Origin: an uncultured bacterium
GTDB taxonomy: Bacteria > Acidobacteriota > Thermoanaerobaculia > Multivoradales > JAHZIX01
NCBI GenBank assembly: GCA_965368975.1
Contig: CBDUPA010000023.1
Location: 28,332 to 92,331 of the forward strand
DNA length: 64,000 nt
Reading direction: 5' to 3'
Within the stretch, counting starts at the first letter, position 1; every line of letters begins with the position of its first letter. Shown here piece after piece: positions 12,617 through 48,481 of this stretch. The translations under genes and the position numbers were made by a program. A model generated the notes under the pieces. The model saw only the letters and a program-made list of their open reading frames with translations, was not told the DNA's origin and did no database searches.

Positions 12617-12620
<4 letters not shown>
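5400..12620 (-). CDS. NRPS, two modules (C-A-T-C-A-T), no TE/E domain, N- and C-terminal docking helices
   Basis: C motifs HHIISDGWS and HHIVSDGWS; A motifs YTSGS(S/T)GRPKG, YGP(S/T)E, TGDL, NGKLDR; T motifs FFELGGHSLL and FFDLGGHSLL. Start overlaps the upstream NRPS stop. Confidence 0.96.
8316..8390. repeat. 15-bp tandem repeat x5 (ggtaccgtctggatt), encodes TNPDG repeats in an NRPS C-domain loop
   Basis: Four identical copies plus one with a single mismatch. Confidence 0.95.
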
Positions 12621-26479
<13,859 letters not shown>

Positions 26480-26646
26480 TGGAAAGCTCCCCCTAGCACA
26501 CGCCCGAAACGAACGACTCACCGAAGGCGGGTGTTGGAATGAACAAGCGAGACTTCGAAGTTACGCGGAACGAAAGGGTTCCGACTCATCAGATACCGAG
26601 CAGTCTATCTTGTTGTCCGTGCTGGGAGGAGAAGCGATAAGGCGGG

Positions 26647-32324: not shown

Positions 32325-33011
32325 ATGCGCGCGAGTGTAGTGAATCTTGGGGCGGCATTGATCTCGCTATTTGCAGCCATTATTGGCTGGCATTTAGCAG
32401 AGTGGAATTATAAGAAAGAGAAGGAAGGGTTTGAGGCTCAAATTGCCGAGATGCGCCGTGTGAATGTTGAGAATGGAAAACTGCAGCAGAAGATGCAGAG
32501 GCAAGATCTAGAGATACAAGGCCTCACTCGAGATTTTCAATCTTTAGAGATTTCACTGGAGGCGTCGAGGTTGCAGGTTGAAGACTTAGAGGAAAAATGG
32601 GGTCGTTGTACGTCACCAGATGGTTTGATTAATATAGTCAGTACACTGGAATCTGCAGGTAGAGTTCGAGTAAGGACGGGTTCGGCTTTAGAGTTTCCAA
32701 TGACGTATTCTTCTCTCTTCGCTAGGATTGTAAGGATTAGTGAGTGGGGCCCCGTTGTAGCGATCGAGAATTGTGACTTTGTGAAGGCTCTTGATGGTAA
32801 TCGGAGTTCTGCAGATGGCGAGAATAGCTATCTCATGACTCCTGACCAGGGCTTGGTGTTGTTCGCATCCAGTAAGTGCTGTGAAGTTGGGTTCGATGTT
32901 TGCAGAGAGGGGACCACAGAGAGGATCGAGCTAACTGTCGAAGAGATGGATGTTGATCATCAGGAGGCATTCATCAACTATGAGAAAGAATTCATCAGCC
33001 TGGAGTTGTAG
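32325..33011 (+). CDS. Orphan protein: N-terminal TM anchor, coiled coil, Cys-containing C-terminal domain (low-GC islet)
   Basis: 228-aa ORF in visibly AT-richer DNA; TM LGAALISLFAAIIGW followed by a heptad-rich segment. Confidence 0.65.
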   Translation: MRASVVNLGAALISLFAAIIGWHLAEWNYKKEKEGFEAQIAEMRRVNVENGKLQQKMQRQDLEIQGLTRDFQSLEISLEASRLQVEDLEEKWGRCTSPDGLINIVSTLESAGRVRVRTGSALEFPMTYSSLFARIVRISEWGPVVAIENCDFVKALDGNRSSADGENSYLMTPDQGLVLFASSKCCEVGFDVCREGTTERIELTVEEMDVDHQEAFINYEKEFISLEL

Positions 33012-33374
33012 ATGCGAATTTCAAGAGCATTGAAGTACGCTTCTGTCTTGTGCATGTTGATCACGTGCTCCTGTGCCAGCACGTCTGAGTTTGAAGCGCT
33101 CTCGTTGCAGGTGGAGAGGCAGGACTCTCGGTTTCGCTCCTATTCAGACCAACAAGCAATTACCGTGGCTCAGTTGATTCTTAGACTTGATGAGCTTTCG
33201 ACTGACATCCAAGCTCTAGAGGAAGCGATCAAGCTTGAAGCTCTAAAGAGAGAGGAGTTTGGCGAGGCCACGAAGAGTCAACTTGCTTCAAGTCAGGAGC
33301 GTCTGCAGCAGATGGCTAGTGTCGTGGCAGAGATGCGTCTTAGATTAGGCGAACTGGCTCGGGCACTTCGTTAG
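33012..33374 (+). CDS. Orphan coiled-coil putative lipoprotein (low-GC islet)
   Basis: Signal ending LITCSC (possible lipobox), all-helical remainder; ATG directly abuts the previous stop. Confidence 0.6.
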   Translation: MRISRALKYASVLCMLITCSCASTSEFEALSLQVERQDSRFRSYSDQQAITVAQLILRLDELSTDIQALEEAIKLEALKREEFGEATKSQLASSQERLQQMASVVAEMRLRLGELARALR

Positions 33375-34572: not shown

Positions 34573-36336
34573 CTACTTCGTGAGTCGACGCTGCAGGCTG
34601 GCGGCAGCGGCCACGTCCGGTGGTTGGTAGAGCAGGTCGCCGCGGGCGCCGCGGTTGGACAGCTCGGCGGCGTTGGCTTCGTCGGTGTCTATGTGCATCT
34701 CCAGCACATAGCTGTCCTTGACCCGGATCAGCACGTCGCCGAAAGTCAGGTCCCTATCGCCTCCTTCAATGGCGACCTCCACCTGGTCGCCGTTCTCGAC
34801 GCCATAGGCTTCGGCGTCTTTCTGGGTCATGTGGATGTGGCGCCAGGCGCAGATCAGGCCCTCGTCCAAGTGCAGCGTGCCGGCGGGACCGACCAAGGTG
34901 ATCGGCGCCGAACCTCGGATGTTGCCCGACGCTCGAATCGGCGCGTCGACCCCCAGCGCAAACTCGTCGGTTCGGGAAATCTCGACCTGGGTTGCCTTGC
35001 GCAACGGCCCGAGCACGCGAACGCCTTCGATACGTCCTCGCGGCCCCACCAGAGTGACGGTTTCGTGGGCGGCGAACTGACCGGGTTGCGACAGGTTGCG
35101 GTAGACCGTGAGCTCGCTTCCCGCGCCGAAGAGAGCGTCCATCGAGGCCCGGTCGAGATGCGTGTGACGACCACTGATGGCGATCGGAATCGGTCCGGGT
35201 GAGCGGACTTCCGTCTCGCCCTGCACCACCCGGGCGGTCTGGCGAGCGGTCATCAACTCCTCGTTGGTCTTGACCACCAGGGTCCGGACCAGTGCCCGGC
35301 CGGCACTGATGTCGACCACCGGAGCATCGGCACGGAGCTTCACGTCCTGGTTGCGGTCGTCGTCGAGTCGGACGCCCAGGAAGTCGAGCTGCTGGAGGAT
35401 GCGGTGGCGCATCTGAGCGCTGTTCTCACCGATGCCGCCGGCCAGAACGATGCCGTCGACACCGCCCATGGCGGCCGCGTAGGCGCCGATGTAGCGGCGC
35501 ACGGCGTGGGCATAGACGGTGATGGCGAGACGAGCACGGTCGTTGCCGGCCGCCGCTTGCGCTTCGATATCCCGCAGGTCGTTGCCCAGACCACTCAGGC
35601 CAGCCAGGCCGCTCTCGTGATTGAGCAGGCGATCCGTTTCGTCGACGCCGAACTCGCGGACCAGTTGCAGTACGACCCCTGGATCGAGGTCGCCACAGCG
35701 GGTTCCCATGACCAGGCCCTCGAGCGGGGTCAACCCCATCGAGGTCTCGACCGAGGCGCCGTATTCGATGGCACAGGCACTGGCGCCGTTGCCGAGATGC
35801 AAGGTGATCAAGCGCAGCTCGCGGATGTCCCGCTCGAGGTAGGTCGCGGCCGTCTTGGAGATGTATTCGTGGGACGGACCATGGAAGCCATAGCGGCGGA
35901 TGCCCAGGCGACGGGCCAGGTCGAGATCGAGGGCATAGTTCTGGGCCCTGCGGGGCAGCCGGCGGTGAAAGGCGGTGTCGAACACGGCCACCTGCGGCAA
36001 GGCCGGCAGCGCCTGGCGGGTGATGCGGATACCGGCGAGGTTCGCCGGGTTGTGCAGGGGCGCCAACGGGACACAGTCCTCGATCGCCGCAACGACCGCG
36101 TCATCGATCAAGGTGGCGTCGTGGAACCGCTCACCGCCGTGGACCACCCGGTGGCCAATGGCTTCGACCTCGAACGCTTCGACCTGCGCGAGAGCTTCGG
36201 TGACGGCCGTCTCGTGGGTTCGCCCCCCTTGCCCGATTCGCTCGGCGGCACCGGTGTGCAGTGCCTCGCCGGTCGCCGTATCGATCAGCTGGTACTTGAC
36301 GCTCGATGAGCCGCAATTGATGACCAAAACCTTCAT
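34573..36336 (-). CDS. ackA: Acetate/propionate kinase fused to a PduL-type phosphate acyltransferase
   Basis: AckA motifs (VINCGSSSVKY, GHRVVHGG, PLHNP, FDTAFH, YGFHG, HLGNGAS, GGIGENS, TNEE) followed in frame by PduL motifs (ISGRHTHL, SQPGQFA, LGPLRKATQVEIS, RHIHM, EMHIDTDEANAA). Confidence 0.92.
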   Translation of the reverse strand: MKVLVINCGSSSVKYQLIDTATGEALHTGAAERIGQGGRTHETAVTEALAQVEAFEVEAIGHRVVHGGERFHDATLIDDAVVAAIEDCVPLAPLHNPANLAGIRITRQALPALPQVAVFDTAFHRRLPRRAQNYALDLDLARRLGIRRYGFHGPSHEYISKTAATYLERDIRELRLITLHLGNGASACAIEYGASVETSMGLTPLEGLVMGTRCGDLDPGVVLQLVREFGVDETDRLLNHESGLAGLSGLGNDLRDIEAQAAAGNDRARLAITVYAHAVRRYIGAYAAAMGGVDGIVLAGGIGENSAQMRHRILQQLDFLGVRLDDDRNQDVKLRADAPVVDISAGRALVRTLVVKTNEELMTARQTARVVQGETEVRSPGPIPIAISGRHTHLDRASMDALFGAGSELTVYRNLSQPGQFAAHETVTLVGPRGRIEGVRVLGPLRKATQVEISRTDEFALGVDAPIRASGNIRGSAPITLVGPAGTLHLDEGLICAWRHIHMTQKDAEAYGVENGDQVEVAIEGGDRDLTFGDVLIRVKDSYVLEMHIDTDEANAAELSNRGARGDLLYQPPDVAAAASLQRRLTK

Positions 36337-36372
36337 GGACAACCTCGTTCCCCTTGAGTTACTCGGAGCCAG

Positions 36373-37935
36373 TTACTCTAAGACAGTCCAGCGCAGCAGA
36401 TTCCCCGCCTCGAAGTCATCCGCGAAAATCAAATCTGACGCGCTCGGCTCGATGCGCAGGTAGTAGACGTCCTGCTCGCCGTTGAAGGTCGCCGCGTAGG
36501 CCAGGTGCGCGGCGTCGTTGAAGGAGACGAGGTCGTAGTAGTCGCCGATCTTGTCCTGATTCGGGAAGCCGAGGTGCGGATCCCAGGCGGGTGTCAGAGC
36601 TTCGTTCGCCGACCACGTGACGCCGGCATCCTCAGAGAACGCGTAGTAGACGACGCTATCGAAACCACTGGGATCGGCGCGCGTGTCATTCCACACGACG
36701 TCGATCCTGCCGTTCGGCGCCACTCCCAGCGTGGCGAACCATTGCCAGGCACCGATGTCGACGGGATCGGTGTTGATCCGGACGGGAACGCTCCAGGTGG
36801 CCCCGCCATCGAGTGACCTCGAGAAGTGGACGTCGAGCGGGTCGTCGCCGGGTGGATCGACGGAGGACAGCAGGTAGAGGCGGTTGGCGTTCGTGGGATC
36901 GGCGATGATCCAGACTTGGCTCAGCATGCCGTTGGGGTTGGGGCCGGCGCCACGGACGAAGCTACCGCCGAGGTCGACGGTGGCGATGAAGTCGGTGTTC
37001 GGGGCTGCCTCGGGATCGCTGGCAGTGGTGGACTTGGCGACCAGGAAGACGGAGAAGTCGGTCGGCAGATGACCGGTGGTGTAGACGGCGCCGTCGGGGC
37101 CGACGGTGGTGGTGCCGCGGCGTAGACCGTCGCCGATCTCGATCGGGGGTTCGAAGGTCGCGCCGGCGTCGGTGGAGCGGTTGAACATGGCGGGTGGGCA
37201 ACAGCCGATGGGGCCATACCAGTTCTGGTAGATGTGCCCCTGCGATGGACCACTCGTGCGATCGATGGCCATCCACTGCTTGTCGCCGCCGAAGGCGTAG
37301 ACGCCGCTGTCCCACGTGGCGCCACCGTCAGCGGAACGGAAGAGGTCGGTGGTGAAGTCGCCTTCGAGGCTGTTGTAGTAGAAGGCACCCTGCGCATCGA
37401 AGTCGAGCACTGGGTCGGAGCGGAAGACAGCCGGTTCCAGGACGCCGGGGAAGGTCCAGGTGGTGCCGCCGTCGCTGCTGTAGGCGAAGCCGGCCTGGCG
37501 GAAGTTGCTGGCGAGGGTGTCGAATTGACGCCAGCCGACCGCCATGCGCGAGGGGTTCGTCGGATCGACGGCGAGCGAGGGTTCATTGGCGGCGTCGCCG
37601 ACGAGGTTGTTGCCTTGCGCGTCGACGTTGACCTGCACGCTCACGTGGCCTGCGGTCTGGACGCGCGGTGCCGGTGTGGTGCGGCGCAGGATGCGCGGAA
37701 TGGCCATGTAGGGGTCGTCGGGATGCTCGTCGGGTTGTCCTTGGGAGGGCAAGGAGCTGGGGCTCTCGGCAGTTGTCGCTGTGACCCCGAGGGCCGTGAT
37801 CGAGAGGGCCGTTACTCCGATGGCCGTCACTCCGATGGCCGTGAGCCAGCCCGTGCAAAGCGCCCAGAAGGCTCGGGTGTGGTGGCTGATGCGGTACGTC
37901 ACTTCGATGAAACCTCTGTCCCAAGGATATGCCAT
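36373..37935 (-). CDS. Secreted BNR/Asp-box repeat (sialidase-like beta-propeller) protein with C-terminal IFADDFEAG motif
   Basis: Asp boxes SSDGGTTW, SADGGATW, STDAGATF, SLDGGATW, SEDAGVTW; ANEPSLAVDP; IGDY. Confidence 0.85.
   Translation of the reverse strand: MAYPWDRGFIEVTYRISHHTRAFWALCTGWLTAIGVTAIGVTALSITALGVTATTAESPSSLPSQGQPDEHPDDPYMAIPRILRRTTPAPRVQTAGHVSVQVNVDAQGNNLVGDAANEPSLAVDPTNPSRMAVGWRQFDTLASNFRQAGFAYSSDGGTTWTFPGVLEPAVFRSDPVLDFDAQGAFYYNSLEGDFTTDLFRSADGGATWDSGVYAFGGDKQWMAIDRTSGPSQGHIYQNWYGPIGCCPPAMFNRSTDAGATFEPPIEIGDGLRRGTTTVGPDGAVYTTGHLPTDFSVFLVAKSTTASDPEAAPNTDFIATVDLGGSFVRGAGPNPNGMLSQVWIIADPTNANRLYLLSSVDPPGDDPLDVHFSRSLDGGATWSVPVRINTDPVDIGAWQWFATLGVAPNGRIDVVWNDTRADPSGFDSVVYYAFSEDAGVTWSANEALTPAWDPHLGFPNQDKIGDYYDLVSFNDAAHLAYAATFNGEQDVYYLRIEPSASDLIFADDFEAGNLLRWTVLE
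37777..37851. repeat. 15-bp tandem repeat (ggccgtNactccgat-like, 4-5 copies) in the signal region of the BNR gene
   Basis: Encodes IGVTA-IGVTA-LSITA-LGVTA. Confidence 0.8.
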
Positions 37936-38001
37936 TAGCTCGCCGCGATTGGGACGGAAGACAGAGGGGCCGGCAGCGCGGGTGTGCGATTCAAGGTCAT
38001 C

Positions 38002-38030
38002 TTGCTTGCGTTTTACGCGGGTGCTATAGT
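38002..38030 (+). promoter_or_regulatory. Sigma-70-type promoter for the precursor/PhyH/NRPS operon
   Basis: TTGCTT (38002-38007), 17-nt spacer, TATAGT (38025-38030), with an extended -10 TG, in AT-rich intergenic DNA. Confidence 0.6.
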
Positions 38031-38142
38031 CGTCTTACTTCTAATATCTATTTGCGTCGACTGCACTTGAGTCGATTGCATTCGCTTCACTCAAGGTCCA
38101 GAACATAACCAGCCCTCCGTAGTGGAGGAGCCAGGAGGAACC

Positions 38143-38325
38143 ATGAAGCGTAGAGCCCTGCTGCGTCGGCCAAGCCAGTTGCTGGCGCGCGACGAGATTC
38201 TCGAGCAAGTACTGGCTGTAGCGGTCGGTGGTGTGGATACCACCAGCCCGGACCGCCTCAGCCCGGACCGTGTCAGCCCGACCCTGTCGACCACGGACAT
38301 CAACAGCGCTGTCAGCCCTCCGTGA
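38143..38325 (+). CDS. Putative RiPP-like precursor peptide (60 aa; double-Gly leader plus Ser/Thr/Pro-rich core)
   Basis: AGGAGG RBS 4 nt before the ATG; MKRRALLRRPSQLLARDEILEQVLAVAVGG / VDTTSPDRLSPDRVSPTLSTTDINSAVSPP; stop overlaps the next start (GTGA). Confidence 0.65.
   Translation: MKRRALLRRPSQLLARDEILEQVLAVAVGGVDTTSPDRLSPDRVSPTLSTTDINSAVSPP
38244..38288. repeat. 15-bp tandem repeat x3 (cagcccggaccgYNt) encoding SPDRL-SPDRV-SPTL
   Basis: Directly visible. Confidence 0.85.
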
Positions 38326-39191
38326 TCGACGCGGAGCAGCTTCACAGCTTGCTCCCCAGTGAAGAAGAGGTAGCCGAGTACCAGCGGCGGGGCTGGTACG
38401 TGTCCCAGCAGGTTCTCCCCGAGGACCTGCTGGACGAAGCTCTCTATGGGGTAGAGCGTCACCATGCCGGTGAGCGGGACTCGCGGCTACCTCTGTCCGG
38501 GGGCTACCTGGACTGGAAACCGGAGCATGGCGACACCCTGCGCATGAGCGACTACGTGTCGCTGCAGAACGACGAGATCCACGAGTTGGTGAAAGCCCCG
38601 GTCCTCGGCGCTATCGCGGCGCGGCTGAGTGGTAGCCGGACGGTTCGGCTGTTCCATGATCAGCTGGTGTACAAGCCGCCCGAGCCGGACGGTGAGGAGA
38701 CGGTGGTTGGCTGGCATGTGGACAGTGCCTACTGGCATACCTGCACCTCGCTCAACCTGCTGACCGCCTGGATCCCGTTCCAGGACTGCACTGTCGAGAT
38801 GGGAACCTTGACGGTGATTGACGGCAGCCACCGCTGGAAGGGTAACCAGTCGATGGCTACCTTCCGCGAGCGCGATCTGGACGCCTTGGTACAGAGCTTT
38901 CGCACCGGCGGCGAGGAGGTACGAGAAGTGCCGATGCAGCTCAAGAAGGGACAGGTGAGTTTTCATCACTGCCTGACCATCCACGGTAGCCTGCCCAACC
39001 GCAGCCAGCAGCCGCGTATCGCACTGGCGGTGCACATGCAGGACGAGAGCAATCGCTACCAGGAGCACATCGATGCCTCCGGCCGGCGCACGGTGCATGT
39101 CAACGACATGCTGGTGCGTAAGGATGCGGAGGGCAAGCCCGACTATGCGGATCCTGAGATCTGCCCGATTCTGTGGGAAGAAGATGCATGA
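38322..39191 (+). CDS. PhyH-family Fe(II)/2-oxoglutarate dioxygenase
   Basis: YQRRGW, FHDQLVYKPP, WHVD (HxD), LTAWIP, GTLTVIDGSH, FHHCLTIHGSLPN, PRIA. Confidence 0.92.
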   Translation: MIDAEQLHSLLPSEEEVAEYQRRGWYVSQQVLPEDLLDEALYGVERHHAGERDSRLPLSGGYLDWKPEHGDTLRMSDYVSLQNDEIHELVKAPVLGAIAARLSGSRTVRLFHDQLVYKPPEPDGEETVVGWHVDSAYWHTCTSLNLLTAWIPFQDCTVEMGTLTVIDGSHRWKGNQSMATFRERDLDALVQSFRTGGEEVREVPMQLKKGQVSFHHCLTIHGSLPNRSQQPRIALAVHMQDESNRYQEHIDASGRRTVHVNDMLVRKDAEGKPDYADPEICPILWEEDA

Positions 39192-42100
39192 GCGAGCAGG
39201 GGACGGACGAACACGAAGGCTGGTGGCTCGAGCGGCTGGAGCCGCCGCCGGACGAAACTAACCTTCCTCTCGACCGCGCGCGGTCGAAGGTTTTCTCGGC
39301 CAAGCGGGCGCAGGTGCGGGTCGCGCTGCCGGCAGCGCTGCGCGGGGAAGTCGAGGCGGTGGGTCGGGGCGATTCCGGTGCCCTGGGGCGCCTACTCGCT
39401 GGATTGGTGGCGGTACTACACCGCTACACCAGTTGTGAGCGGCCCGTGATCGGCATCCCGGTTGCTGCCAGTGAGACGGGCGGCAACGTCCTGCCGGTGA
39501 TCATCGACGGCGTGGCACAGGAGCAGCGCTTCTCGGATCTCGCCGAGGCGGCGACGGCGGCGGTGGCCGCGACGCGGGCGCATGCCTCGATGCCATGGGC
39601 GACCCTGGTCGAGCGGCTCGGCCTTGCCGAGGTACAGAACCGCAACCCCGTGTTCGACATCGTTCTTGTGCTGCCAGGCGATCCACCGGTGTTGGCGGCA
39701 CTGCGCCATGACGTCGAGGTACGGCTGGGCATTGAGGGTAAGGCGGAGCTGGAGATCGACTACAGCGCCCGCCTGCTGCGCACCGACACCCTGGAGCGCT
39801 TCGCCGGGCACTTGCTGACCCTGCTGGCGGCGGCTCTGGCGGAACCCGAAGCTGCGTTGCTCGATCTCGACCTGCTGCGCGATACGGAACGCCGGCAGTT
39901 GATCGTCGACTGGAACCAGACGGCGGCGGAGTTTCCCTCCGACCGCTGCCTACACCATCTCTTCGAGGCCAGTGCGGCGGAGCATCCGGATGCCGAGGCG
40001 CTGGTTTTCGAGCAGCGCTCTTGGACCTACTCCGAACTCGACGCCCAGGCCAATCGCCTGGCGCACTATCTGCGTGCCCAGGGCTTCGGCCGGCACTCCC
40101 GCATAGGCCTGAGTCTGCGCGCCACCGATGACTCGCTGGTGGTGCTGCTGGCGATCCTCAAGGCCGGTGGCGCGGTGGTCACCCTCGACGCCACCTTCCC
40201 GGCCTACCGCCTGGAGCTGATCATTCGCAACTCCGGACTCACCGCCGCGGTCACCGAGACGGCGTTGCTCGATCGCCTGCCCGAGGGGGACTACCAGGCG
40301 TTCTGCTACGACCAGCTGAGCGCCAAGCTAGCAGCGCAGCCGGCAACGCCTCCGGAGGCCGCTGGCTCCGATCTCGGCAGCGACGCGAGTGACCTGCTCT
40401 ACATCCTCTACACCTCGGGCTCCACCGGTTTTCCCAAGGGCGTGTGCATGGAGCATCGCTCGCTGGTCAACTTGTGCAGCTGGCAGCTGCAACACGGGGC
40501 CGCGCCGCCCAACGCGCGCACCCTGCACCGCACTTCGCTGGGCTTCGATGTCAGTTTCCAAGAGATTTTCTCCACCTGGGCCGGCGGCGGTACGGTGGTG
40601 GTGGCCTCGGACGCGGTGCGGGCGGATATCTCGCTGCTGCCCGCCTTCTTCGAGCAGCATCGGATCGAACGCGCCTTCCTGCCCTTCGTTTCGCTGCAGC
40701 AGCTGGCCGAGACCTTCGCCGTCCAGACCCACAAGTTGGAGACCTTGAAGGAGATCGTCACCGCTGGTGAGCGGCTGCAGATCACCATGCCGCTGGTGCG
40801 CTTCTTCCGCCAGGTCGACTGCAGCCTCGACAACCAGTACGGCCCTACCGAGACCCATGTGGTGACCAGCTACCGTCTGCAGGGACCGTGCACCCGCTGG
40901 CCGACGCTGCCGCCGATCGGGCGGCCGGTACACAACGTTTCGACCTACATTCTGGACGCCCGGCTACGTCCGGTGCCGGTGGGCGTGGCGGGCGAGATTT
41001 GCATTGGTGGCGTCGCGGTGGCGCGCGGTTACAATGGCCTCGCCGAGGACGGCGACTCGCCCTTCCAGCCCGATCCCTACCGCGCGCAAGCCGGCCTCGA
41101 CCCTTTCGGCGGCCGGCTCTACCGCACCGGCGACCTCGGCCGTTTCCTACCCGACGGTGAGATCGAGTTCCTCGGCCGCCGCGATCACCAGGTCAAGATC
41201 CGCGGCTACCGCGTCGAGATGGGGGAGATCGAGGTGGCGCTGCGTGACATCGCTGGGGTGCGTGAGGCGGTGGTCACCGCGCGCGAAGACCTTTCGGGCA
41301 CCCAGGCGCTGGTTGCCTACATCGTCACCGAGGCGCCGGACGTGCCGCCGCTGGTAGCTATTCGGCGCGCCTTGCACGAGCGGCTACCCGAGCACATGGT
41401 GCCAGCTGCCGCCGCCTTTGTCCGTCTTGCCGAGTTACCGCTCACCGCCACCGGCAAGGTCGACCCGGCCAAGCTTCCCGAGCCCGGCCAGGAGCGGCCG
41501 GAGCTGAGTGAGAGCTACATCGCCTCGCGCTCTAGCCTGGAGAAGCGGGTCTCGGCGATCTGGTCCAAGACACTGGGCGTCGGCCAGGTGGGAGTCAACG
41601 ACAAGTTCCTCGACCTCGGTGGTCACTCGCTGGTCGGCGTGCAGATCGTGTCGCAGATCAACGAACTCTACGGCATCACCGTACGCCTGAGTTCGTTGAT
41701 GAACCAGGCGACAGTGGCGTCGCTGGCGCAGGAAGTGGAACGCTTGCTGCTGGCTCGAGTCGAAGAGATGTCCGAGGAGGACGCGCTGCAGCTGGCCAAA
41801 GGCGGCGGTCGGGACGAGCCTGGCCAACCTGGAGCAGGCCAACCTGGAGCAGGCCAACCTGGAGCAGGCAGTACCGTCAGCGAGTTCTACGAGCTGCCGA
41901 ACGGCCGCCGCGTCGTCGATCAGTACCGAGCTGAGACGCACCATCTGGTGGTTGACATCTTCGAGCACAAGACCTATGACCGCCATGGCATCGTCTACCC
42001 CGAGGACGGCTGCTACGTCGACGTCGGTGCCAACATCGGCCTGTTCGCTCTCTACGCCCTGGAGCGGGCGCCGAAGGCACGCGTCTATGCCTTCGAGCCG

Positions 42101-42664
42101 GCACCGCGCCTGTTCGAGCTGCTGCGACGTAACGTCGAGGATTTCGGGGAGCAGGTCCGCACCTTCGATGTCGGTCTTGCGGATCAGGCTGGAGAGGCGT
42201 CCTTCACCTACTATCCGCGCTTGCCCGGCATGTCCTCCTTCGCAGCCGACAAGGACGACGAGCGTGCCTTGCTCGGCGCCATTGTGCGCAATCAGGCCGA
42301 GCGCGGCGAGGAGGGCATGGAGCACGTCATGTCCGACGTCGACGCCCTGATCGAGGATCGCCTGGGTAGCGAGAGCTTCCCGGCACAGCTGCGCACGCTG
42401 TCCGAGGTGCTGACCGAGACCGGGATCGACGCCGTCGACCTGCTCAAGATCGATGTCCAGAAGACCGAGCTGCAGGTGCTGCAGGGTCTGGCCGATGGTG
42501 ACTGGCCGAAGATCCGCCAGGTGGTGGTCGAGGTGCACGATCAGGACGGCCGCCTGCGGCGAGTGGAAGAGTTGCTGCAGAGCCGCGGCTACCGCACCGC
42601 CACCGATCAGGATTCGCTGCATACCGGTTCGGTGGTCCACTTCGTCTACGCCATCCGTTCCTGA
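39188..42664 (+). CDS. NRPS-like protein: truncated C (C-terminal lobe only) - A (Pro/pipecolate-type) - T - docking helix - FkbM methyltransferase
   Basis: Begins at WWLERL...LPLDRAR with no HHxxxDG; A motifs YTSGSTGFPKG, FDVSFQE, NQYGPTETHVV; T motif FLDLGGHSL; FkbM motifs VDVGANIGLF, YAFEP, LLKIDVQKTE, VVVEVH. ATG 39188 overlaps the PhyH stop. Confidence 0.92.
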   Translation: MSEQGTDEHEGWWLERLEPPPDETNLPLDRARSKVFSAKRAQVRVALPAALRGEVEAVGRGDSGALGRLLAGLVAVLHRYTSCERPVIGIPVAASETGGNVLPVIIDGVAQEQRFSDLAEAATAAVAATRAHASMPWATLVERLGLAEVQNRNPVFDIVLVLPGDPPVLAALRHDVEVRLGIEGKAELEIDYSARLLRTDTLERFAGHLLTLLAAALAEPEAALLDLDLLRDTERRQLIVDWNQTAAEFPSDRCLHHLFEASAAEHPDAEALVFEQRSWTYSELDAQANRLAHYLRAQGFGRHSRIGLSLRATDDSLVVLLAILKAGGAVVTLDATFPAYRLELIIRNSGLTAAVTETALLDRLPEGDYQAFCYDQLSAKLAAQPATPPEAAGSDLGSDASDLLYILYTSGSTGFPKGVCMEHRSLVNLCSWQLQHGAAPPNARTLHRTSLGFDVSFQEIFSTWAGGGTVVVASDAVRADISLLPAFFEQHRIERAFLPFVSLQQLAETFAVQTHKLETLKEIVTAGERLQITMPLVRFFRQVDCSLDNQYGPTETHVVTSYRLQGPCTRWPTLPPIGRPVHNVSTYILDARLRPVPVGVAGEICIGGVAVARGYNGLAEDGDSPFQPDPYRAQAGLDPFGGRLYRTGDLGRFLPDGEIEFLGRRDHQVKIRGYRVEMGEIEVALRDIAGVREAVVTAREDLSGTQALVAYIVTEAPDVPPLVAIRRALHERLPEHMVPAAAAFVRLAELPLTATGKVDPAKLPEPGQERPELSESYIASRSSLEKRVSAIWSKTLGVGQVGVNDKFLDLGGHSLVGVQIVSQINELYGITVRLSSLMNQATVASLAQEVERLLLARVEEMSEEDALQLAKGGGRDEPGQPGAGQPGAGQPGAGSTVSEFYELPNGRRVVDQYRAETHHLVVDIFEHKTYDRHGIVYPEDGCYVDVGANIGLFALYALERAPKARVYAFEPAPRLFELLRRNVEDFGEQVRTFDVGLADQAGEASFTYYPRLPGMSSFAADKDDERALLGAIVRNQAERGEEGMEHVMSDVDALIEDRLGSESFPAQLRTLSEVLTETGIDAVDLLKIDVQKTELQVLQGLADGDWPKIRQVVVEVHDQDGRLRRVEELLQSRGYRTATDQDSLHTGSVVHFVYAIRS
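41822..41866. repeat. Perfect 15-bp tandem repeat x3 (ggccaacctggagca), GQPGA linker between T and FkbM
   Basis: Directly visible. Confidence 0.95.
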
Positions 42665-42683
42665 GTTCGAGAGAGGCGCCCGG

Positions 42684-44363
42684 ATGCGAGATGATGACCT
42701 GCGCGATCGCCTGTCTGGGCTCTCGTCGGTCAAGCGGGCTCTCTACGAGCGCCTGCTGGAGGAGGGCGAGGCATCCTTCGGCGAGCGCGAAGCCATCCCC
42801 CGCTGGATGCACCGTGACCGTGGGCCCTTGACCCCGACTCAGCGCCAGCTGTGGCGGCAGGATCACTCGAAGGGCGGCGATGCACTGCTCAACATGTGTT
42901 ACGCGGTCCGCCTGGAACCGGCGCCGGAGGGCCGGCCCTTGGATGCGCGTGCCCTGCGGCGGGCGCTGGCTGATCTACAGGCGCGCCACGAGCCGCTGCG
43001 CAGCGTCTACGAGCAGGGCAGTACGGGCGTGGTGGTGCGTGTCCTGCCGTCGTCGCCACTGCACTTCGGCGACGTCGACCTGCGCGGTCTGCGTCCCGAG
43101 GACCGTGAGCGCCAGGTGCAACGTTGGGCCGCCGCCGACCTCTTGCGCGCCTTCGACCTGGCGCACGGTCCGGTGTGGCGGGGTGCGTTGCTGCGTCTGG
43201 AGTCTGCCGATGCGGCGAGCGGGCTAGACGTGTTGCTACTCGGCCTCCATCACGTCTGCGGCGACGCCTGGTCGATGGAAGTGTTCAGCAAGGATCTGTC
43301 CGAGCTCTACCGCGCCCGCGTCGCCCATCGCAGATCCAGCGCTGATCTAGGCGCCGAACCCGAGCTGCCACCGCTGGAACGTCAGTGTATCGACTGGGCT
43401 GCCGAGCAGGAGCGCTGGCTCACCGATCCCGAAGCCGGCGAGCAACTCGCCTGGTGGCAGCAGCGTCTCGCCCGCCCGCGGCCAGCGACGAGCGCCCTGC
43501 CCTACGACAAACCTCGGCTGCCGGTGCCCTACCTGCGTTCGTCGCGGCAAGTGGCGCAGCTACCAGCCGTCCTGGTCAGCGCTCTGCGCGACCTCGGCAG
43601 CCAACTGGGCACATCTCTGTTCACCACCCTGCTAGCCGGCTTCGCGGCAGTGCTGGCGCGCTGGCGCGGCGATCCCGACGTGCTGATCGGTAGCCTTGCC
43701 GCCAACCGGCCACCGGGCAGCACCCAGATGCTGGGTGCGCACTACAACACCATTGTGGTGCGCGCCGACCTGGGTGGTGATCCGGACCTGGTCGAAGTGC
43801 TGGAGCGGCTGGCGGATTGTGTCGAGGAGACCCTGCAGCACCAGCGCATCCCCTTTCCACTGGTCGCCGAACTCTACGAGAAGGATGCGCTCGCTGAGAC
43901 AGGGGGAAGCCACGACCACAAAGAACTGCACCGTGCGATGCTAGTTCTCGACAAGTACCCCTTACAGTTCCTGCAACTCGAAGGCCTCGATGTCCGTGGC
44001 CTGCACTTCAGTCCCTACGAACCCGAGTCCGCCGTCGATTCCGCCGACCCTGTGCCGACACATCCCGAGCTGCCATTCCAGATCACTCGCCTACTGACCG
44101 CCTCGTCCGCGGATCTGACCTTCTTCCTGCGCGAAGCCGGCGATGCGCTCACCCTGTCCGCCTTCTACAAGACGGATCTCTTCGATGACCGCACGATTGC
44201 CAAACTGATACTGTCGTTCATAGAAGCACTCGTCGACCTGGCCAACGCTTCCGACACTCCACTGAGTCAGCTGTCGCTATCTCTCGATGCGCAAGCTCGG
44301 GTAGTAGGGCAGGCTCCGGATGCCGAGGCCTTCCCCCAAACTGCGTTCGAAGGAGATTCCTGA
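42684..44363 (+). CDS. Stand-alone condensation domain protein with N-terminal docking helix
   Basis: Likely start MRDDDLRDRLSGLSSVKRALYERLL; PLTPTQRQLW, RHEPLRS, HHVCGDAWS, LPYDKPR, YKTDLFDDRTI. Confidence 0.88.
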   Translation: MRDDDLRDRLSGLSSVKRALYERLLEEGEASFGEREAIPRWMHRDRGPLTPTQRQLWRQDHSKGGDALLNMCYAVRLEPAPEGRPLDARALRRALADLQARHEPLRSVYEQGSTGVVVRVLPSSPLHFGDVDLRGLRPEDRERQVQRWAAADLLRAFDLAHGPVWRGALLRLESADAASGLDVLLLGLHHVCGDAWSMEVFSKDLSELYRARVAHRRSSADLGAEPELPPLERQCIDWAAEQERWLTDPEAGEQLAWWQQRLARPRPATSALPYDKPRLPVPYLRSSRQVAQLPAVLVSALRDLGSQLGTSLFTTLLAGFAAVLARWRGDPDVLIGSLAANRPPGSTQMLGAHYNTIVVRADLGGDPDLVEVLERLADCVEETLQHQRIPFPLVAELYEKDALAETGGSHDHKELHRAMLVLDKYPLQFLQLEGLDVRGLHFSPYEPESAVDSADPVPTHPELPFQITRLLTASSADLTFFLREAGDALTLSAFYKTDLFDDRTIAKLILSFIEALVDLANASDTPLSQLSLSLDAQARVVGQAPDAEAFPQTAFEGDS

Positions 44364-44365
44364 TC

Positions 44366-44902
44366 ATGGCAAAAGAGAAGAAAGCGGCGAAGAAGAAGGC
44401 GAAGCTGAAGGGCCGTACGCTGACCGCGTTGCGAGAAGGCGGCAAGCCCGCTGCGGCACTGATCAACACGTTGAGCCCCGAGCGCTCGCTGTCCGAGATC
44501 ACCCTGGTGGTCAACACCCTGAGCGAGGCGCAGAGCTTGACCCCTGAAGCTAGCTTCGGCCACGCCAAGATCACCTCCCTGAGCCCGGCCGCCTCAGTGA
44601 CTCCTGTTTCGGTGCGCCTGCGCGACGGCGGCGAGACCTTCGACGTCGCGGTGCAGGCCCTGACACCGGTCGGCAGCCTGGCCGAAGTCAGCGGCGGCGC
44701 GGCTGCCAACCTGTTCTCCAGCTCCATGTTCGATACCTTTCTGGCGGCGCAGCTGCTGGAGCCCAAACAACTGCTGGAGCTGGACGCCCGCCAACTGCTG
44801 GCGGTCAAGCAGCACGTGATCCAGACCATCGTCTCGTCGCCAGCCATCCTCAAGGTGCTCAAGGCCAAGGCTGCGTCGGTGGTCAAAGAACTCACGGCCT
44901 AG
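44366..44902 (+). CDS. Hypothetical protein with Lys-rich N-terminus and repeated L(S/T)PxxS motifs
   Basis: GGAG RBS, 2-bp gap from the upstream gene, typical high-GC codon usage. Confidence 0.75.
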   Translation: MAKEKKAAKKKAKLKGRTLTALREGGKPAAALINTLSPERSLSEITLVVNTLSEAQSLTPEASFGHAKITSLSPAASVTPVSVRLRDGGETFDVAVQALTPVGSLAEVSGGAAANLFSSSMFDTFLAAQLLEPKQLLELDARQLLAVKQHVIQTIVSSPAILKVLKAKAASVVKELTA

Positions 44903-44940
44903 ATTGGCCGCCTTCATTGGGTGGCAGGAGAAAGAAAGCC

Positions 44941-45801
44941 ATGGACCTGACCCCGGAACAGCAGGCCCTTTTACCGTCTGACGCCGACGTGCATTTCTAT
45001 CAGGAACACGGTTGGTGGATCTCGCCGGTACTGCTCGACGCGCACGAACTCGAAGACGCCAACTTTGGTGCTGAGCGCTACTACGCTGGTGAGCGCGACG
45101 CGCCGCTCTTGGTCGACCTGCACACCGATTGGAAGCCCGAGGACGGCGAAGTGCTGCGCCAGAACGACTATGTTTCGCGCCAGGTCGACGAGTTCCGCGA
45201 CTTGCTGCACCATCCCCTGGTCGCCGCTACCGCCGCCCGCCTGAGCGGTGCGGACTCGTTGCGTCTGTTCCACGACCAGCTGATCTACAAGCCGCCTGGC
45301 GCACCGCCGGAGCGCAACACCGTTGGCTGGCACGCCGACAAGGCCTACTGGCAGACCTGCACCTCGACGCGGATGCTCACTGCCTGGATCCCGTTGCAGG
45401 AAAGCACCGAAGAACTCGGCACACTGGTCGTGCTCGACAAGAGCCACCACTGGAGCGCCGAGCTTGGCCTGCGCACCTTCCACAATCCCGACCTCGCCGC
45501 GCTCGAAGCGCGCATCCGCGCCAGCGGTCACCCCATGGAGCGCGTGCCGCTGGTGATGGAGCCCGGTCAGGTCAGCTTCCACCATTGCTTGACCATCCAC
45601 GGCAGCTACCCCAACGTCTCCGACCGCCCGCGTCTGGCCTACGCCATCCACCTGCAGGACGGCGGTAACGTCTACCAGGCTGCGCTGCAGGACAACGGCA
45701 AGCCGGTGATTCACATCAACGACATTCTGTGCGGCAAGGACGCCGCTGGCCAGCCGGACTACGCGGATCCGGCGATCTGCCCCGAGGTGTGGCCGCTCTA
45801 G
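44941..45801 (+). CDS. PhyH-family Fe(II)/2-oxoglutarate dioxygenase (paralog of 38322-39191)
   Basis: WHAD, LTAWIP, FHHCLTIHGSYPN; long shared blocks with the first copy (DWKPE, AARLSG, RLFHDQL, YWxTCTS, PDYADP). Confidence 0.92.
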   Translation: MDLTPEQQALLPSDADVHFYQEHGWWISPVLLDAHELEDANFGAERYYAGERDAPLLVDLHTDWKPEDGEVLRQNDYVSRQVDEFRDLLHHPLVAATAARLSGADSLRLFHDQLIYKPPGAPPERNTVGWHADKAYWQTCTSTRMLTAWIPLQESTEELGTLVVLDKSHHWSAELGLRTFHNPDLAALEARIRASGHPMERVPLVMEPGQVSFHHCLTIHGSYPNVSDRPRLAYAIHLQDGGNVYQAALQDNGKPVIHINDILCGKDAAGQPDYADPAICPEVWPL

Positions 45802-45945
45802 TTTTCAAGAGCCTCCACGCGGAGAAGCGGTTCGAAAGGAAGACCAGGGGGGGCCGAAGCTGCGGTGTACAATAACCGGACCCGGCTTCCTCGCGAGGCC
45901 GTTTCCCCACCTTCCTTTTCCCTTCCCCTCGGAGGTAGAAATACG

Positions 45946-48000
45946 ATGACGACTCCCGCTCGCTCCCCATCTTCCAGCATCGAGTCCTCCAGCATTCCGT
46001 CCTCCCGCCCGGCCGAGACTGTCACCCTGACGCCCGACAAGCGCATCCTCTTCCTGACCAAAGATCCCGAGCTGATCCGCAAGCAGCTCACCGGCGAGCT
46101 GAACCTGACGCTCGATGATGTTGGCGTCGACGACCTGCTCGACGACATCAACACTGACGCCATGACGCCAGCCTGGGTGTGCTTCAATCATCGTCCCGAA
46201 GACCTGGCGCGCGAGGCGTACGCGGGCCTGATTGTCGACGGGCAGCGGGTGTTCGAGCGTGACGCCTTGATCAACGGCGGTTTCGAAGTGATCGTGTCGG
46301 GCTATCGCAAGGGCGTCGGGTCGTCACGGGAGACGGCGGTGCAAGCGGAGAAGTGGAGCGGCATTCGGATCGCGGTGGCTGAATCGTTCGCGCCGATCCA
46401 TGCGCGCAACAACATCAACCAAGGGGTGTTGATGGCCAACCATGCCATGCTACGCCGCCTGATGGACGGCGAGGGTGTGCCGCTCGAGGAGTTCTACCGC
46501 GAGTACGACCCAATCACGCAGTTGATCGTGCGGCACGGCGGGCTGTTCCCGTTCGCACGTGCGCTGAAGGCCAAGGAAGTGCAACTGCCGTCACCTGCCA
46601 CGGGGGAGCGGCCGATGACGATGTGCGAGAAGGTCCTGGCGGCGCACCTGGTCGGCGTCAATTCGGCAGGGCGCTACGTGCAGCCCGGCGACGCGGTGTT
46701 GGTGGAGGTCGATGGCGGCTATTCGCACGACTTCACGTCGGCACAGGTGCACTACTTCCTGCAGCAGGAGTACGGCGACGACTACCAGGTACAGACGCCG
46801 GAGCGCTTCGGCGCCTTCGAAGATCACCTGATCTACGCCGACGGCGTCGCCCGCTTCGCGCCTTTCCGCGACAAGATCGAGGTGTTGCGCCAGCTGCAGC
46901 GCGACTTCCAAGGACACACCGGGGTGCGCGATTTCTTGGCCAAGGACGGCGTGTCGCCGGGCATCTGCCACGAGGTGGCGCGCGTCGAGATGGTCGAGCC
47001 GGGAGACTTCATCCAGGCGACGGACAGCCACACTTGCATGGGCGGCGCCAACAACGCACTGGCCTGGGGCGTTGGTTCGACGGAGTACGCCAATCTGTTG
47101 TACTCGGGCTTCACGCAGGTCGAGGTACCGGAGGCGATCCGTTTCCACCTGGTCGGCGAACTGGCGGACAACGTCACGGCCAAGGACGTCATGCTGCACA
47201 TCCTGCTGCACTACGCGCGGCCGCAGTTGACGCTCAACCGGGTGATGGAGTTCACCGGCCCGGGGCTGGCCAGTCTGTCGATGGACGAGCGCGCGACGCT
47301 GACCAACATGGCGACCGAGTGCTCGGCGCGCGGCGGCATTATCTCGGCGGACGAGGTCTTGTTCGAGTGGTTGGCCGAGCACCGGCCCGGCCTCGACCTC
47401 GAGCGCGCGCGAGAGAGAGCCGTCGAGCCGGACGAAGGTGCGGTCTATGCCGGTGGTGAGCACGATATCGACCTGTCGGCCATGCGGCCGATGGTGGCGC
47501 ATCCGGGCGATCCGGACCACGGCGTGCCATCGGATCCGACCAACGGTGCGATGGTCGACGAGATCGGCCGCGTCGAGATCGATATCGCCTACGGTGGTAG
47601 CTGCACGGCGGGCAAGATCGACGACTTCGACTTCTACCACCGGGTGGTCAAGGAGGCGTTGGAGCAGGGCCTGAAGGTGCACCCGAACGTACGCTTCTTG
47701 ATCCAGTTCGGCTCCCAGGAGGTCGAGCGCTATGCCCGTGGCAACGGCTTGGTGGACGACTTCGAGCGTGCTGGGGTGACCGTCATCCAACCTGGCTGTG
47801 GCGCCTGCATTGGCTGCGGCCCGGGTGTCTCGGAGAACGCCGAGCAGGTGACGGTGAGCGCGATCAATCGCAACTACAAGGGGCGCTCGGGTCCGGGCAA
47901 GCTCTACCTGGCGTCGCCACTGACGGTGGCGGCTTCGGCCTTCGCTGGCTACATCACGGCCTACGAGCCGGGGATGTTCCGGCAGCGCATGGCGTCTTGA
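45946..48000 (+). CDS. Aconitase-family hydro-lyase, LeuD-like swivel domain fused N-terminal to a LeuC-like domain
   Basis: DDINTDAMTP and GVGSSRETA (swivel), then PMTMCEK, DSHTCMGG, GGSCTAG, PGCGACIG, NRNYKGRSG, YLASP. GGAGG RBS before ATG 45946. Confidence 0.88.
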   Translation: MTTPARSPSSSIESSSIPSSRPAETVTLTPDKRILFLTKDPELIRKQLTGELNLTLDDVGVDDLLDDINTDAMTPAWVCFNHRPEDLAREAYAGLIVDGQRVFERDALINGGFEVIVSGYRKGVGSSRETAVQAEKWSGIRIAVAESFAPIHARNNINQGVLMANHAMLRRLMDGEGVPLEEFYREYDPITQLIVRHGGLFPFARALKAKEVQLPSPATGERPMTMCEKVLAAHLVGVNSAGRYVQPGDAVLVEVDGGYSHDFTSAQVHYFLQQEYGDDYQVQTPERFGAFEDHLIYADGVARFAPFRDKIEVLRQLQRDFQGHTGVRDFLAKDGVSPGICHEVARVEMVEPGDFIQATDSHTCMGGANNALAWGVGSTEYANLLYSGFTQVEVPEAIRFHLVGELADNVTAKDVMLHILLHYARPQLTLNRVMEFTGPGLASLSMDERATLTNMATECSARGGIISADEVLFEWLAEHRPGLDLERARERAVEPDEGAVYAGGEHDIDLSAMRPMVAHPGDPDHGVPSDPTNGAMVDEIGRVEIDIAYGGSCTAGKIDDFDFYHRVVKEALEQGLKVHPNVRFLIQFGSQEVERYARGNGLVDDFERAGVTVIQPGCGACIGCGPGVSENAEQVTVSAINRNYKGRSGPGKLYLASPLTVAASAFAGYITAYEPGMFRQRMAS

Positions 48001-48134
48001 GGTCGGGCGCCGAGTGTGGCTCGGCTAGAGTTCTTCGGCTGCCATAGCTTTTCGGCTGATAGAGTTTTCCGCTGATAGAATGGCCGTCACATTGTGAAAT
48101 CCGTCAACGCGCCTTCAGAGAGGGAGAAGACCCG

Positions 48135-48380
48135 ATGAGTGAGAAGCCGACGATTGCCGCCCGCACGCCGGTCGTGCTCGAGTTGGAGCCTGGAACCTAT
48201 TGGTGGTGCCGCTGCGGCAAGTCCGCGAACCAGCCATTCTGCGATGGTGCCCACGCGGGGTCCGGTTTCGAGCCGATGGAGGTCGAGATCTCGGAGAAGA
48301 AGCGGTACGCGATGTGCGCGTGCAAGTACACGGAGAACTCTCCGATGTGCGACGGCACGCACGCGCGGCTGCCAGAGTAG
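48135..48380 (+). CDS. CDGSH iron-sulfur domain protein (two motifs, MiNT-like)
   Basis: WCRCGKSANQPFCDGAH and MCACKYTENSPMCDGTH. Confidence 0.92.
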   Translation: MSEKPTIAARTPVVLELEPGTYWWCRCGKSANQPFCDGAHAGSGFEPMEVEISEKKRYAMCACKYTENSPMCDGTHARLPE

Positions 48381-48403
48381 CGTTCGCGCTCACTGCGACC
48401 GAG

Positions 48404-48435
48404 AGAGAAGAAAGGCCGGGGTCGAAACCCCGGCC
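48404..48435 (-). terminator. Rho-independent terminator downstream of btuB (possibly bidirectional)
   Basis: Stem GGCCGGGGT-CGAA-ACCCCGGCC followed on the minus strand by TTTCTTCTCT. Confidence 0.7.
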
Positions 48436-48481
48436 GTCGTGCTTCTGGGGCCCCTTGTTCTTGAGGAAGAGAGGGCCGGTT

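Follow-up and report, generated by a model that had tools for sequence, protein, structure and literature searches.

A six-gene operon with a precursor-like peptide gene and a putative proline-type thiotemplate module in an uncultured acidobacterium

Gene content and layout of the locus

The window analysed here is a stretch of 64,000 nucleotides from an uncultured bacterium of the phylum Acidobacteriota (assembly GCA_965368975.1, contig CBDUPA010000023.1, positions 28,332 to 92,331). It carries six co-directional, tightly spaced genes at 38143-45801 of the forward strand (coordinates read from the sequence), which encode a small peptide (pep), a PhyH-family protein (PhyH1), a stand-alone module of a nonribosomal peptide synthetase (NRPS) fused to an FkbM-type methyltransferase, a condensation (C) enzyme encoded on its own (free C), an orphan protein (p178) and a second PhyH-family protein (PhyH2). 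An initial annotation, made from the sequence alone, had described these six genes with GTGA and ATGA overlaps and gaps of 19, 2 and 38 bp, and the rechecked coordinates agree with it (Table 1). Its proposal that the NRPS parts build a modified proline- or pipecolate-type unit, which the C domain grafts onto the ribosomal peptide, is partly supported as a whole by the present analysis.

The GC content at third codon positions (GC3) is 0.74-0.85 across all six frames. Scans with Pfam and NCBIfam matched a full Condensation domain in free C, PhyH in two proteins and AMP-binding (A), PP-binding (T, the carrier) and FkbM domains in the NRPS, whereas pep and p178 matched no family in either collection. 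No thioesterase, reductase or second carrier was found among the six genes by these domain scans. The single A-T unit and the single active C domain described previously were thus borne out, but the inactive N-terminal half-C of the NRPS had been missed. Likewise, the earlier statement that there is no second carrier is true of the operon but not of its surroundings, where six C-A-T modules are encoded at 5400-26521 on the reverse strand.

Table 1. Features of the operon and its upstream region (positions in the window)
Feature	Position	Strand	Description
Promoter-like site	38002-38030	+	TTGCTT-17 nt-TATAGT; 8/12 consensus positions; in 207-bp divergent intergenic region
Direct repeat	38052-38080	+	GTCGAYTGCA x2, 15 bp apart; Tandem Repeats Finder: period 15, 1.9 copies
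Double Shine-Dalgarno-like element	38124-38140	+	GGAGGAGCCA then GGAGGAACCA, before pep ATG
pep	38143-38325	+	ATG start; 60 aa; preceded by GGAGGAGCCAGGAGGAACC
pep leader	38143-38232	+	30 aa ending in GG; 27/30 residues identical in P0004
pep core	38233-38325	+	30 aa and TGA stop; four S-P motifs; VSPP end
PhyH1	38322-39191	+	GTG start overlapping pep stop (GTGA); 289 aa; PF05721
NRPS	39188-42664	+	ATGA overlap with PhyH1; stand-alone module
NRPS partial C	~39194-39901	+	C-terminal lobe only; residues 8-243 = profile positions 188-455
NRPS A domain	~39962-41482	+	Pfam AMP-binding
NRPS T domain (carrier)	~41537-41746	+	PP-binding; GGHSL at residue 816
NRPS linker	41822-41869	+	(GQPGA)x3; perfect 15-bp tandem repeat, 3.2 copies, between carrier and FkbM
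NRPS FkbM	~41993-42661	+	PF05050 / TIGR01444
Free C	42684-44363	+	19-bp gap after NRPS; 559 aa; condensation enzyme
p178	44366-44902	+	2-bp gap after free C; orphan; 178 aa
PhyH2	44941-45801	+	38-bp gap after p178; alternative TTG start at 44917

The peptide gene pep and its homologue

The pep gene is very probably translated, because it has a strong Shine-Dalgarno site, because PhyH1 is coupled to it without such a site of its own, and because its codon usage is gene-like. The site in front of pep (GGAGGAGCCAGGAGGAACC-ATG), which the initial annotation also called strong, is the best of the operon. The GTG start of PhyH1 sits on the pep stop codon and fits the N-termini of 11 PhyH relatives. 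For the reading frame of pep the codon log-odds are +0.25 bits per codon, whereas the other five frames stay at or below +0.05; set against 60-codon windows of long genes, this score ranks at the 22nd percentile of those in frame and is exceeded by only 1.4% of those out of frame. An untranslated peptide, which would have undone the original interpretation, is at odds with the Shine-Dalgarno site, the GTGA coupling and the codon score.

It is accordingly very improbable that pep is a functionless frame lying over a conserved 5' regulatory RNA and that the operon truly starts at PhyH1. Such an RNA would account for GC at codon position 1 exceeding that at position 3 in the leader half of pep, for a reverse-complement frame that scores equal to the forward frame over the leader alone, and for a CCCUCC...GGAGG hairpin upstream of the frame. 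However, it would leave a strong Shine-Dalgarno site on pep and none on PhyH1, and the frame of the only homologue stays open despite a length change of 7 codons. Moreover, an Rfam search of the 5' region found no family, and its predicted RNA fold was not better than those of shuffled sequences (z = -1.19). The hairpin itself (within 38036-38142) could hide the first of the two Shine-Dalgarno-like elements. The repeated GTCGAYTGCA in the presumed 5' untranslated region may be a candidate operator. The sigma-70 promoter assigned earlier proved to be weak: the site matches 8 of 12 consensus positions and falls below the threshold of a promoter scan of 37500-48600, which found 0 sites where 1.3 were expected by chance.

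The leader of pep terminates in EILEQVLAVAVGG, and three of the four S-P motifs in the core are spaced by five residues; a 15-bp tandem repeat lies within the core at 38244-38288. The leader ending in GG and the SP-rich core of 30 residues were described correctly before. When about 5.8 billion protein clusters were searched, 3 candidates were scored and 2 proteins resulted: pep, and P0004 with 67 residues (E = 6.3e-9), which is the sole homologue of pep. The identity between the two breaks off exactly at the GG: in the core only 14 of 30 residues are identical and 7 extra residues are present, and the difference between leader and core is significant (Fisher p = 0.0006). The three 5-spaced S-P motifs and the C-terminal VSPP are nevertheless retained. 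For comparison, orthologue identity is 72% for free C (P0006) and 80% for p178 (P0002), below that of the pep leader and above that of its core. P0004 and P0006 have the same recorded longest contig (22,354 bp), which suggests that the operon is conserved in their source. The pattern, known from one homologue only, appears to be that expected of a leader-plus-core precursor, and a small frame that is coupled to PhyH1, with a leader kept to the GG and a diverged SP-rich core, bears out the precursor-like character proposed for pep.

No paralogue of pep was found in its own genome, where tblastn at E <= 50 gave the self match as the only significant one, and an Atlas search with pep gave unnamed clusters only. 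A weak tblastn match (E = 0.81) at about 5897-6025 on the reverse strand of another contig of the genome (C43) reads ...EQVMAIISGG followed by a Ser/Thr-rich stretch, and is probably an unrelated GG-type precursor. The absence of a C39 peptidase from the window holds for its whole contig, on which no C39 peptidase-ABC (ATP-binding cassette) gene was found. Since three C39-ABC genes (PF03412) are present on other contigs (C13 and C8), cleavage behind the GG is possible in trans. A crude scan for GG-type small frames near these three genes gave nothing convincing.

The NRPS module, the dioxygenases and the free condensation domain

The N-terminal C lobe of the NRPS lacks the HHxxxD motif and is predicted to be catalytically dead. 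The pocket region of the A domain (A4 to A5) matched four PDB sequences at E <= 1e-5. The best were 9bfd_B and 8p5o_A, that is, tyrocidine synthase 2 (2e-16) and gramicidin S synthase 2 (1.9e-14), with the next at 5.5e-9; the two chains are presumably the proline-activating first modules TycB1 and GrsB1. The pocket, taken off the TycB1 alignment, reads DVQLVAQVV against DVQLIAHVV in TycB1 (7/9 identical), the changes being Ile to Val at 299 and His to Gln at 322, a position which is His in both TycB1 and GrsB1. These matches agree with the proline- or pipecolate-type A domain proposed initially and argue strongly that the module loads proline or a close cyclic analogue onto its single carrier. 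The A domain also matched LgrA with 507 bits, but this score was rejected as a clue to specificity, being the sum of two domains.

The FkbM domain scored 73.5 bits against a Pfam cut-off of 22.7 and 107.2 bits against an NCBIfam cut-off of 37.7; no solved relative was found at E <= 0.01. With the carrier-FkbM part as a query, 3,143 representatives were obtained at E <= 1e-30, and among the best 150 of these the match was contiguous across carrier and FkbM in 17. A Pfam scan of 8 of the 17 gave architectures including A-T-FkbM, KS-AT-ACP-FkbM, KR-ACP-FkbM and T-FkbM. The fusion thus recurs in NRPS and polyketide synthase (PKS) proteins, and FkbM can therefore be regarded as a recurrent on-carrier O-methyltransferase. 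The whole NRPS architecture including the half-C was found in P0036 (1129 aa, 47% identity over its length) and P0037 (1130 aa, 45%), while P0075 (41%) is without the half-C. All three have the pocket DVQLIAQV(V/A), with Gln at 322. Even if pep should turn out to be unrelated to its chemistry, the operon represents a recurrent uncharacterised type of module made up of a half-C, a Pro-like A domain, T and FkbM.

Both PhyH proteins matched PF05721 (PhyH1, 1.8e-26, 94.2 bits; PhyH2, 8.5e-25, 88.7 bits; cut-off 22), and PhyH2 is a paralogue of PhyH1 (51% identity). The residues for iron and 2-oxoglutarate binding, H132, D134, H221 and R232, are invariant in 12/12 aligned PhyH sequences, a strong indication that both proteins are intact Fe(II)/2-oxoglutarate dioxygenases. 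Their nearest solved relatives are SnoN, SnoK, MysH and human PhyH.

If these enzymes acted on the peptide instead of the carrier, pep (perhaps with p178) could serve as a sacrificial scaffold, the prolines of its SP motifs being hydroxylated and proteolysis freeing hydroxyproline for the A domain, followed by O-methylation and condensation. The part of PMC12002111 on rufomycin offers a precedent, in which a small ribosomal peptide undergoes modification and its hydrolysis then supplies an NRPS. The scheme would also suit the SP positions kept while the rest of the core drifts, and the Gln at 322 shared by the operon NRPS, P0036, P0037 and P0075 where TycB1 and GrsB1 have His. Nevertheless, we consider it quite unlikely: the operon encodes no peptidase, and hydroxylation of proline, free or on the carrier, is a simpler route with many precedents. 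A co-fold of pep with PhyH1 present and free C replaced also scored 0.00, although a null score does not count as evidence against binding under the rules of the tool.

Free C has an intact HHVCGD motif and a 45-residue N-terminal extension which is conserved in its orthologue, and it matches PDB 4znm, which we take to be SgcC5, at 3.1e-16. The earlier description of an intact C domain without an acceptor carrier in the operon is therefore correct. Its N-terminus seemed by eye to resemble the N-terminal motif of the large NRPS proteins, but this likeness was rejected, since a hidden Markov model (HMM) built from that motif in 8 NRPS proteins of the genome did not match free C (E <= 10, filters off). 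Because the operon is without a thioesterase, a reductase and a second carrier, free C is the sole candidate for release, and release by free C would in turn require a soluble or trans-acting nucleophile. It is probable, and common to all serious explanations of the operon, that a proline-type residue is loaded onto the carrier, undergoes hydroxylation and O-methylation there and is then released by free C.

When free C, PhyH1 and pep were co-folded, the peptide reached 0.59 (0.59, 0.60 and 0.54 in the individual runs). Each of the three controls scored 0.00, among them one with PhyH1 kept and free C replaced, so that the predicted contact of pep hinges on the C domain. The calibration of such scores, with 7 of 80 solved complexes and 2 of 110 mismatched pairs passing at 0.60 or under, is only rough here, because three chains were folded together with shallow alignments made for this analysis; the partner has a predicted local distance difference test (pLDDT) score of 42-52, and the runs share at least 19% of contacts. 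Multimer prediction, which had been suggested for the peptide with each enzyme, thus gave a weak contact with free C that passes its controls, and a score of 0.00 with PhyH1 once free C was replaced.

Candidate acceptors of the released unit

The six genes may form a self-contained pathway in which a minimal thiotemplate module and a ribosomal peptide are linked. There is a strong case that pep is translated as the first cistron and that PhyH1 is made by termination-reinitiation at the pep stop codon. In this model the carrier-bound prolyl thioester would be hydroxylated by PhyH1, PhyH2 or both and O-methylated by FkbM, and free C would off-load it onto a soluble nucleophile, other release functions being lacking. 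The conserved leader of pep would bind free C, acylation would take place at a Ser/Thr hydroxyl of the (S/T)-P motifs in the core or at the new N-terminus after GG cleavage, and one of the three C39-ABC transporters encoded elsewhere could remove the leader and export the product. That pep is a substrate of some enzyme of the operon is the best single explanation, although it can be put forward only tentatively. As to the acceptor of the modified prolyl unit, pep would be the most likely one, but grafting by the C domain in particular, though the leading version of this explanation, is doubtful. The same must be said of the complete scheme, in which a leader-guided ribosomal peptide accepts hydroxy- or methoxy-prolyl from the C domain on Ser/Thr or on the post-GG N-terminus and p178 is a second substrate or the chaperone of the peptide.

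A number of observations weigh against pep as the substrate. Only two examples of pep are available in all, and the conservation of the leader, compared at the protein level in these two, could reflect an RNA element. Double-glycine leaders have hydrophobic residues at -4, -7 and -12 from the GG cleavage site, and the pep leader fits this consensus in part (-7 Leu and -12 Ile, but -4 Ala and -8 Val). The core contains no Lys (nor any Cys). By its sequence free C does not stand out from C domains of the elongation type, its best matches being Txo1 and Txo2 (~1e-42), and the co-fold was graded as weak support by the tool itself. A protease, an exporter and a recognisable leader-binding domain were all missing from the operon in the Pfam and NCBIfam scans, and this explanation gives p178 no role. 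PhyH relatives at 42-60% identity were collected from 13 metagenome loci, of which 12 are without a C domain; the neighbours scanned there are a DegT aminotransferase, a GNAT, glycan-related proteins, an HPPD-like dioxygenase, an AMP-ligase, a thiamine diphosphate (ThDP) enzyme and a GMC oxidoreductase. A pep-like frame was found upstream in 0 of the 5 PhyH metagenome loci inspected, and the conserved GG-leader, SP-rich frames anticipated next to homologous genes were thus not encountered. In L018 (71% GC), one of the metagenome loci, a gene for a free C with 33% identity occurs together with a PhyH2-like gene (58%), ABC exporters and a free carrier protein on a contig that stops at the start of the C gene, with the upstream DNA outside view; it suggests carrier-bound chemistry for the C-PhyH pair. 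Finally, many NRPS lines of the genome, with 32 module-sized matches, could accept the unit in trans.

Nearly as likely as a modified peptide, and a real possibility, is a small-molecule pathway in which free C passes hydroxy- or methoxy-prolyl to a diffusible amine or alcohol and pep is an adaptor, an accessory subunit or a mere coupling cistron. Free-standing C domains join NRPS-bound acyl groups to soluble polyamines in fabclavine and zeamine biosynthesis, as the relevant part of PMC8842026 describes. The operon contains no hallmark enzyme of RiPPs (peptides that are made on the ribosome and modified after translation), the PhyH subfamily occurs mostly in small-molecule or glycan contexts, and the family of the NRPS module (P0036, P0037 and P0075; 41-47% identity) is wider than that of pep and p178. 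The weak contact between pep and the C domain would suit an adaptor as well as a substrate. On the other hand, an adaptor or coupling frame does not predict a conservation that ends at the GG and is followed by a divergent, length-variable core with the SP motifs kept, and no amine-acceptor gene is present in the operon.

It is unlikely, though somewhat less so than the scaffold scheme, that the operon supplies a building block in trans and that free C joins the modified prolyl to the chain of another NRPS. One candidate is a hexamodular line at 5400-26521 on the reverse strand, 12 kb upstream of the operon, which consists of two subunits of 4634 aa (12617-26521) and 2406 aa (5400-12620) with six C-A-T modules, starts with C and ends with T. 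Neither a thioesterase nor a reductase was found in it. A carrier-bound unit made by CysH, CysJ and CysQ, as treated in part of PMC7966384 for cystobactamid, is a precedent for such a supply, and the terminal T without a thioesterase, the NRPS-rich genome, the conserved N-terminal extension of free C and the free carrier protein found beside C and PhyH in L018 are all consistent with it. However, the docking-motif HMM misses free C, eight unrelated-looking genes lie between the operon and the hexamodular NRPS, and the combined line would still be without a release domain. No orthologue of the hexamodular NRPS was found in 20 relatives (best 46%), and pep and p178 would be left unexplained.

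Eight NRPS proteins, in the window and on contigs C1, C8, C16, C18 and C47, have in common the N-terminal motif (S/K)(V/L)KDLY(K/R)RIxSLxPE(Q/K)RAxL, and the two subunits in the window end in acidic tails, ...S(D/E)ADV(E/N)ELL; judged from their sequences, motif and tail look like a lineage-specific docking pair. A TPR-CHAT (caspase-fold) protein is encoded 9 bp downstream of the hexamodular NRPS (1951-26521 together, reverse strand), and a gene for an UppS-family prenyltransferase lies 126 bp upstream of it on the same strand.

The orphan p178 has a Lys-rich N-terminus, six hydrophobic-(S/T)-P motifs and a GC3 of 0.85. It has one homologue anywhere (P0002), in which all six (S/T)-P motifs are kept; no Pfam or NCBIfam family matched even at E <= 10, and Atlas gave no usable match. 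Its AlphaFold 2 (AF2) model has a pLDDT of 36. Among 41 genomes, p178 was found in its own alone and in none of the 40 relatives. Proline is preceded by Ser or Thr in 4 of 6 cases in pep and in 6 of 8 in p178, against a genome background of 11%. A BLAST comparison of pep with p178 had E = 0.25. The operon gives this orphan pair a testable context.

The operon is rare. Close PhyH relatives were found in none of the 400 genomes of the phylum sampled (best non-self match 160 bits, self 610 bits); at E <= 1e-30, PhyH was matched in 8 of 401 phylum genomes. T-FkbM was matched in 12 of the 401, a count that includes one unpublished genome (G189) on which no conclusion is based, and in the 400 genomes no match was contiguous across carrier and FkbM, all non-self matches spanning the FkbM part only. 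Eight loci with T-FkbM from a scan of genome contigs contained neither PhyH nor p178 nor pep; in three of them (L002, L005 and L006) the FkbM match sits between the A-domain and carrier matches. A tblastn search of plasmids with the NRPS gave generic NRPS matches only (<40% identity). A distinct, glycan-like context is seen in the metagenome loci L013 and L015-L019, where the gene after that of the PhyH subfamily is conserved, about 367 aa long, and encodes an Acetyltransf_6 (FemAB-like GNAT) domain; L016 and L019 have a DegT aminotransferase ahead of it.

Downstream, an aconitase-family gene (45865-48000, forward strand) starts 63 bp after PhyH2. It is conserved across the order: 17 of 20 relatives have it in full length (69-76% identity) and one more gives a partial match, and in the loci of 6 relatives it was the only one of 20 window proteins matched. 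Because it is a core gene kept in relatives without p178, the operon ends at 45801. Its product of 711 aa is a fusion with a LeuD-like swivel domain before the LeuC-like domains. Upstream, the segment 32000-34000 has a low GC content (53% against about 65-70% around it) and may be foreign DNA; of its tandem frames, 32325-33011 has no Pfam match and 33012-33374 matched SKA2 below the cut-off (24.7 vs 30.1 bits). A single 589-aa frame at 34573-36342 (reverse strand) encodes acetate kinase fused to a PTAC-type phosphotransacylase.

Comparison with known systems

VibH and SgcC5 are free-standing condensation enzymes which use soluble acceptors. Free C differs from such enzymes in that its sequence is nearest to Txo1 and Txo2, C domains of the in-line elongation type. 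With the C domains of fabclavine and zeamine biosynthesis, as presented in part of PMC8842026, it shares the separate gene, the intact HHxxxD and the lack of a cognate acceptor carrier beside it.

SyrB2-type enzymes are carrier-dependent Fe/2-oxoglutarate enzymes of the PhyH fold. The operon resembles them in having a PhyH-fold enzyme beside an A-T unit, and TIGR01762, the 'chlorinating enzyme' model, is matched weakly (E = 0.00024), but at 20.5 bits this match lies far below the family cut-off of 226, and the His-x-Asp of the operon PhyH marks a hydroxylase, in contrast to His-x-Ala/Gly. In the part of PMC7966384 that concerns cystobactamid, CysH, CysJ and CysQ are described as a cassette with a stand-alone A-T module, in which an Fe/2-oxoglutarate oxygenase hydroxylates the carrier-bound amino acid before O-methylation. 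Both systems combine a stand-alone A-T module with an oxygenase and an O-methyltransferase. However, the operon substrate would be of the Pro type and not Asn, there are two PhyH-family oxygenases, the methyltransferase is fused behind the carrier, and the operon has no AMDH domain but has a free C and a peptide with a leader. An aminoacyl shuttle of the SyrC/CysB/CmaE type was not found among the six genes by Pfam and NCBIfam.

The pep leader is similar to those of double-glycine/C39 systems in its shortness, its final GG, the hydrophobic residues at -7 and -12 and the end of its conservation at the GG. It differs from them by Ala at -4 and Val at -8, and in that no leader family was matched and the operon lacks a linked C39 gene.

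Ribosomal and non-ribosomal pathways are known to be joined by several means, ATP-grasp ligases among them. A BytA-type ribosomal peptide feeds the NRPS of rufomycin (part of PMC12002111), a GNAT attaches the PKS acyl chain in lipolanthines and goadvionin (part of PMC8842026), and PEARL/LanB enzymes occur in NRPS-PKS clusters (part of PMC11212132). As in these cases, a ribosomal peptide and an assembly-line module would be encoded together in the operon for one product. However, in what these sources set out no condensation domain joins the two halves, and the operon in turn is without a GNAT, an ATP-grasp, a LanB or a P450 enzyme. No condensation domain acting on a ribosomal peptide was found in the open-access literature searched (subscription-only papers and supplements were outside the scope), and within the same limits the earlier statement that no pathway with this gene set has been described fits. 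If the hybrid pathway is true, it would be categorically new as the first direct condensation of a thiotemplate-bound unit with a ribosomal peptide. It would then add a joining chemistry beyond GNATs, LanB-type ligases and proteolytic release, and provide a compact six-gene tool to decorate genetically encoded peptides with non-proteinogenic residues.

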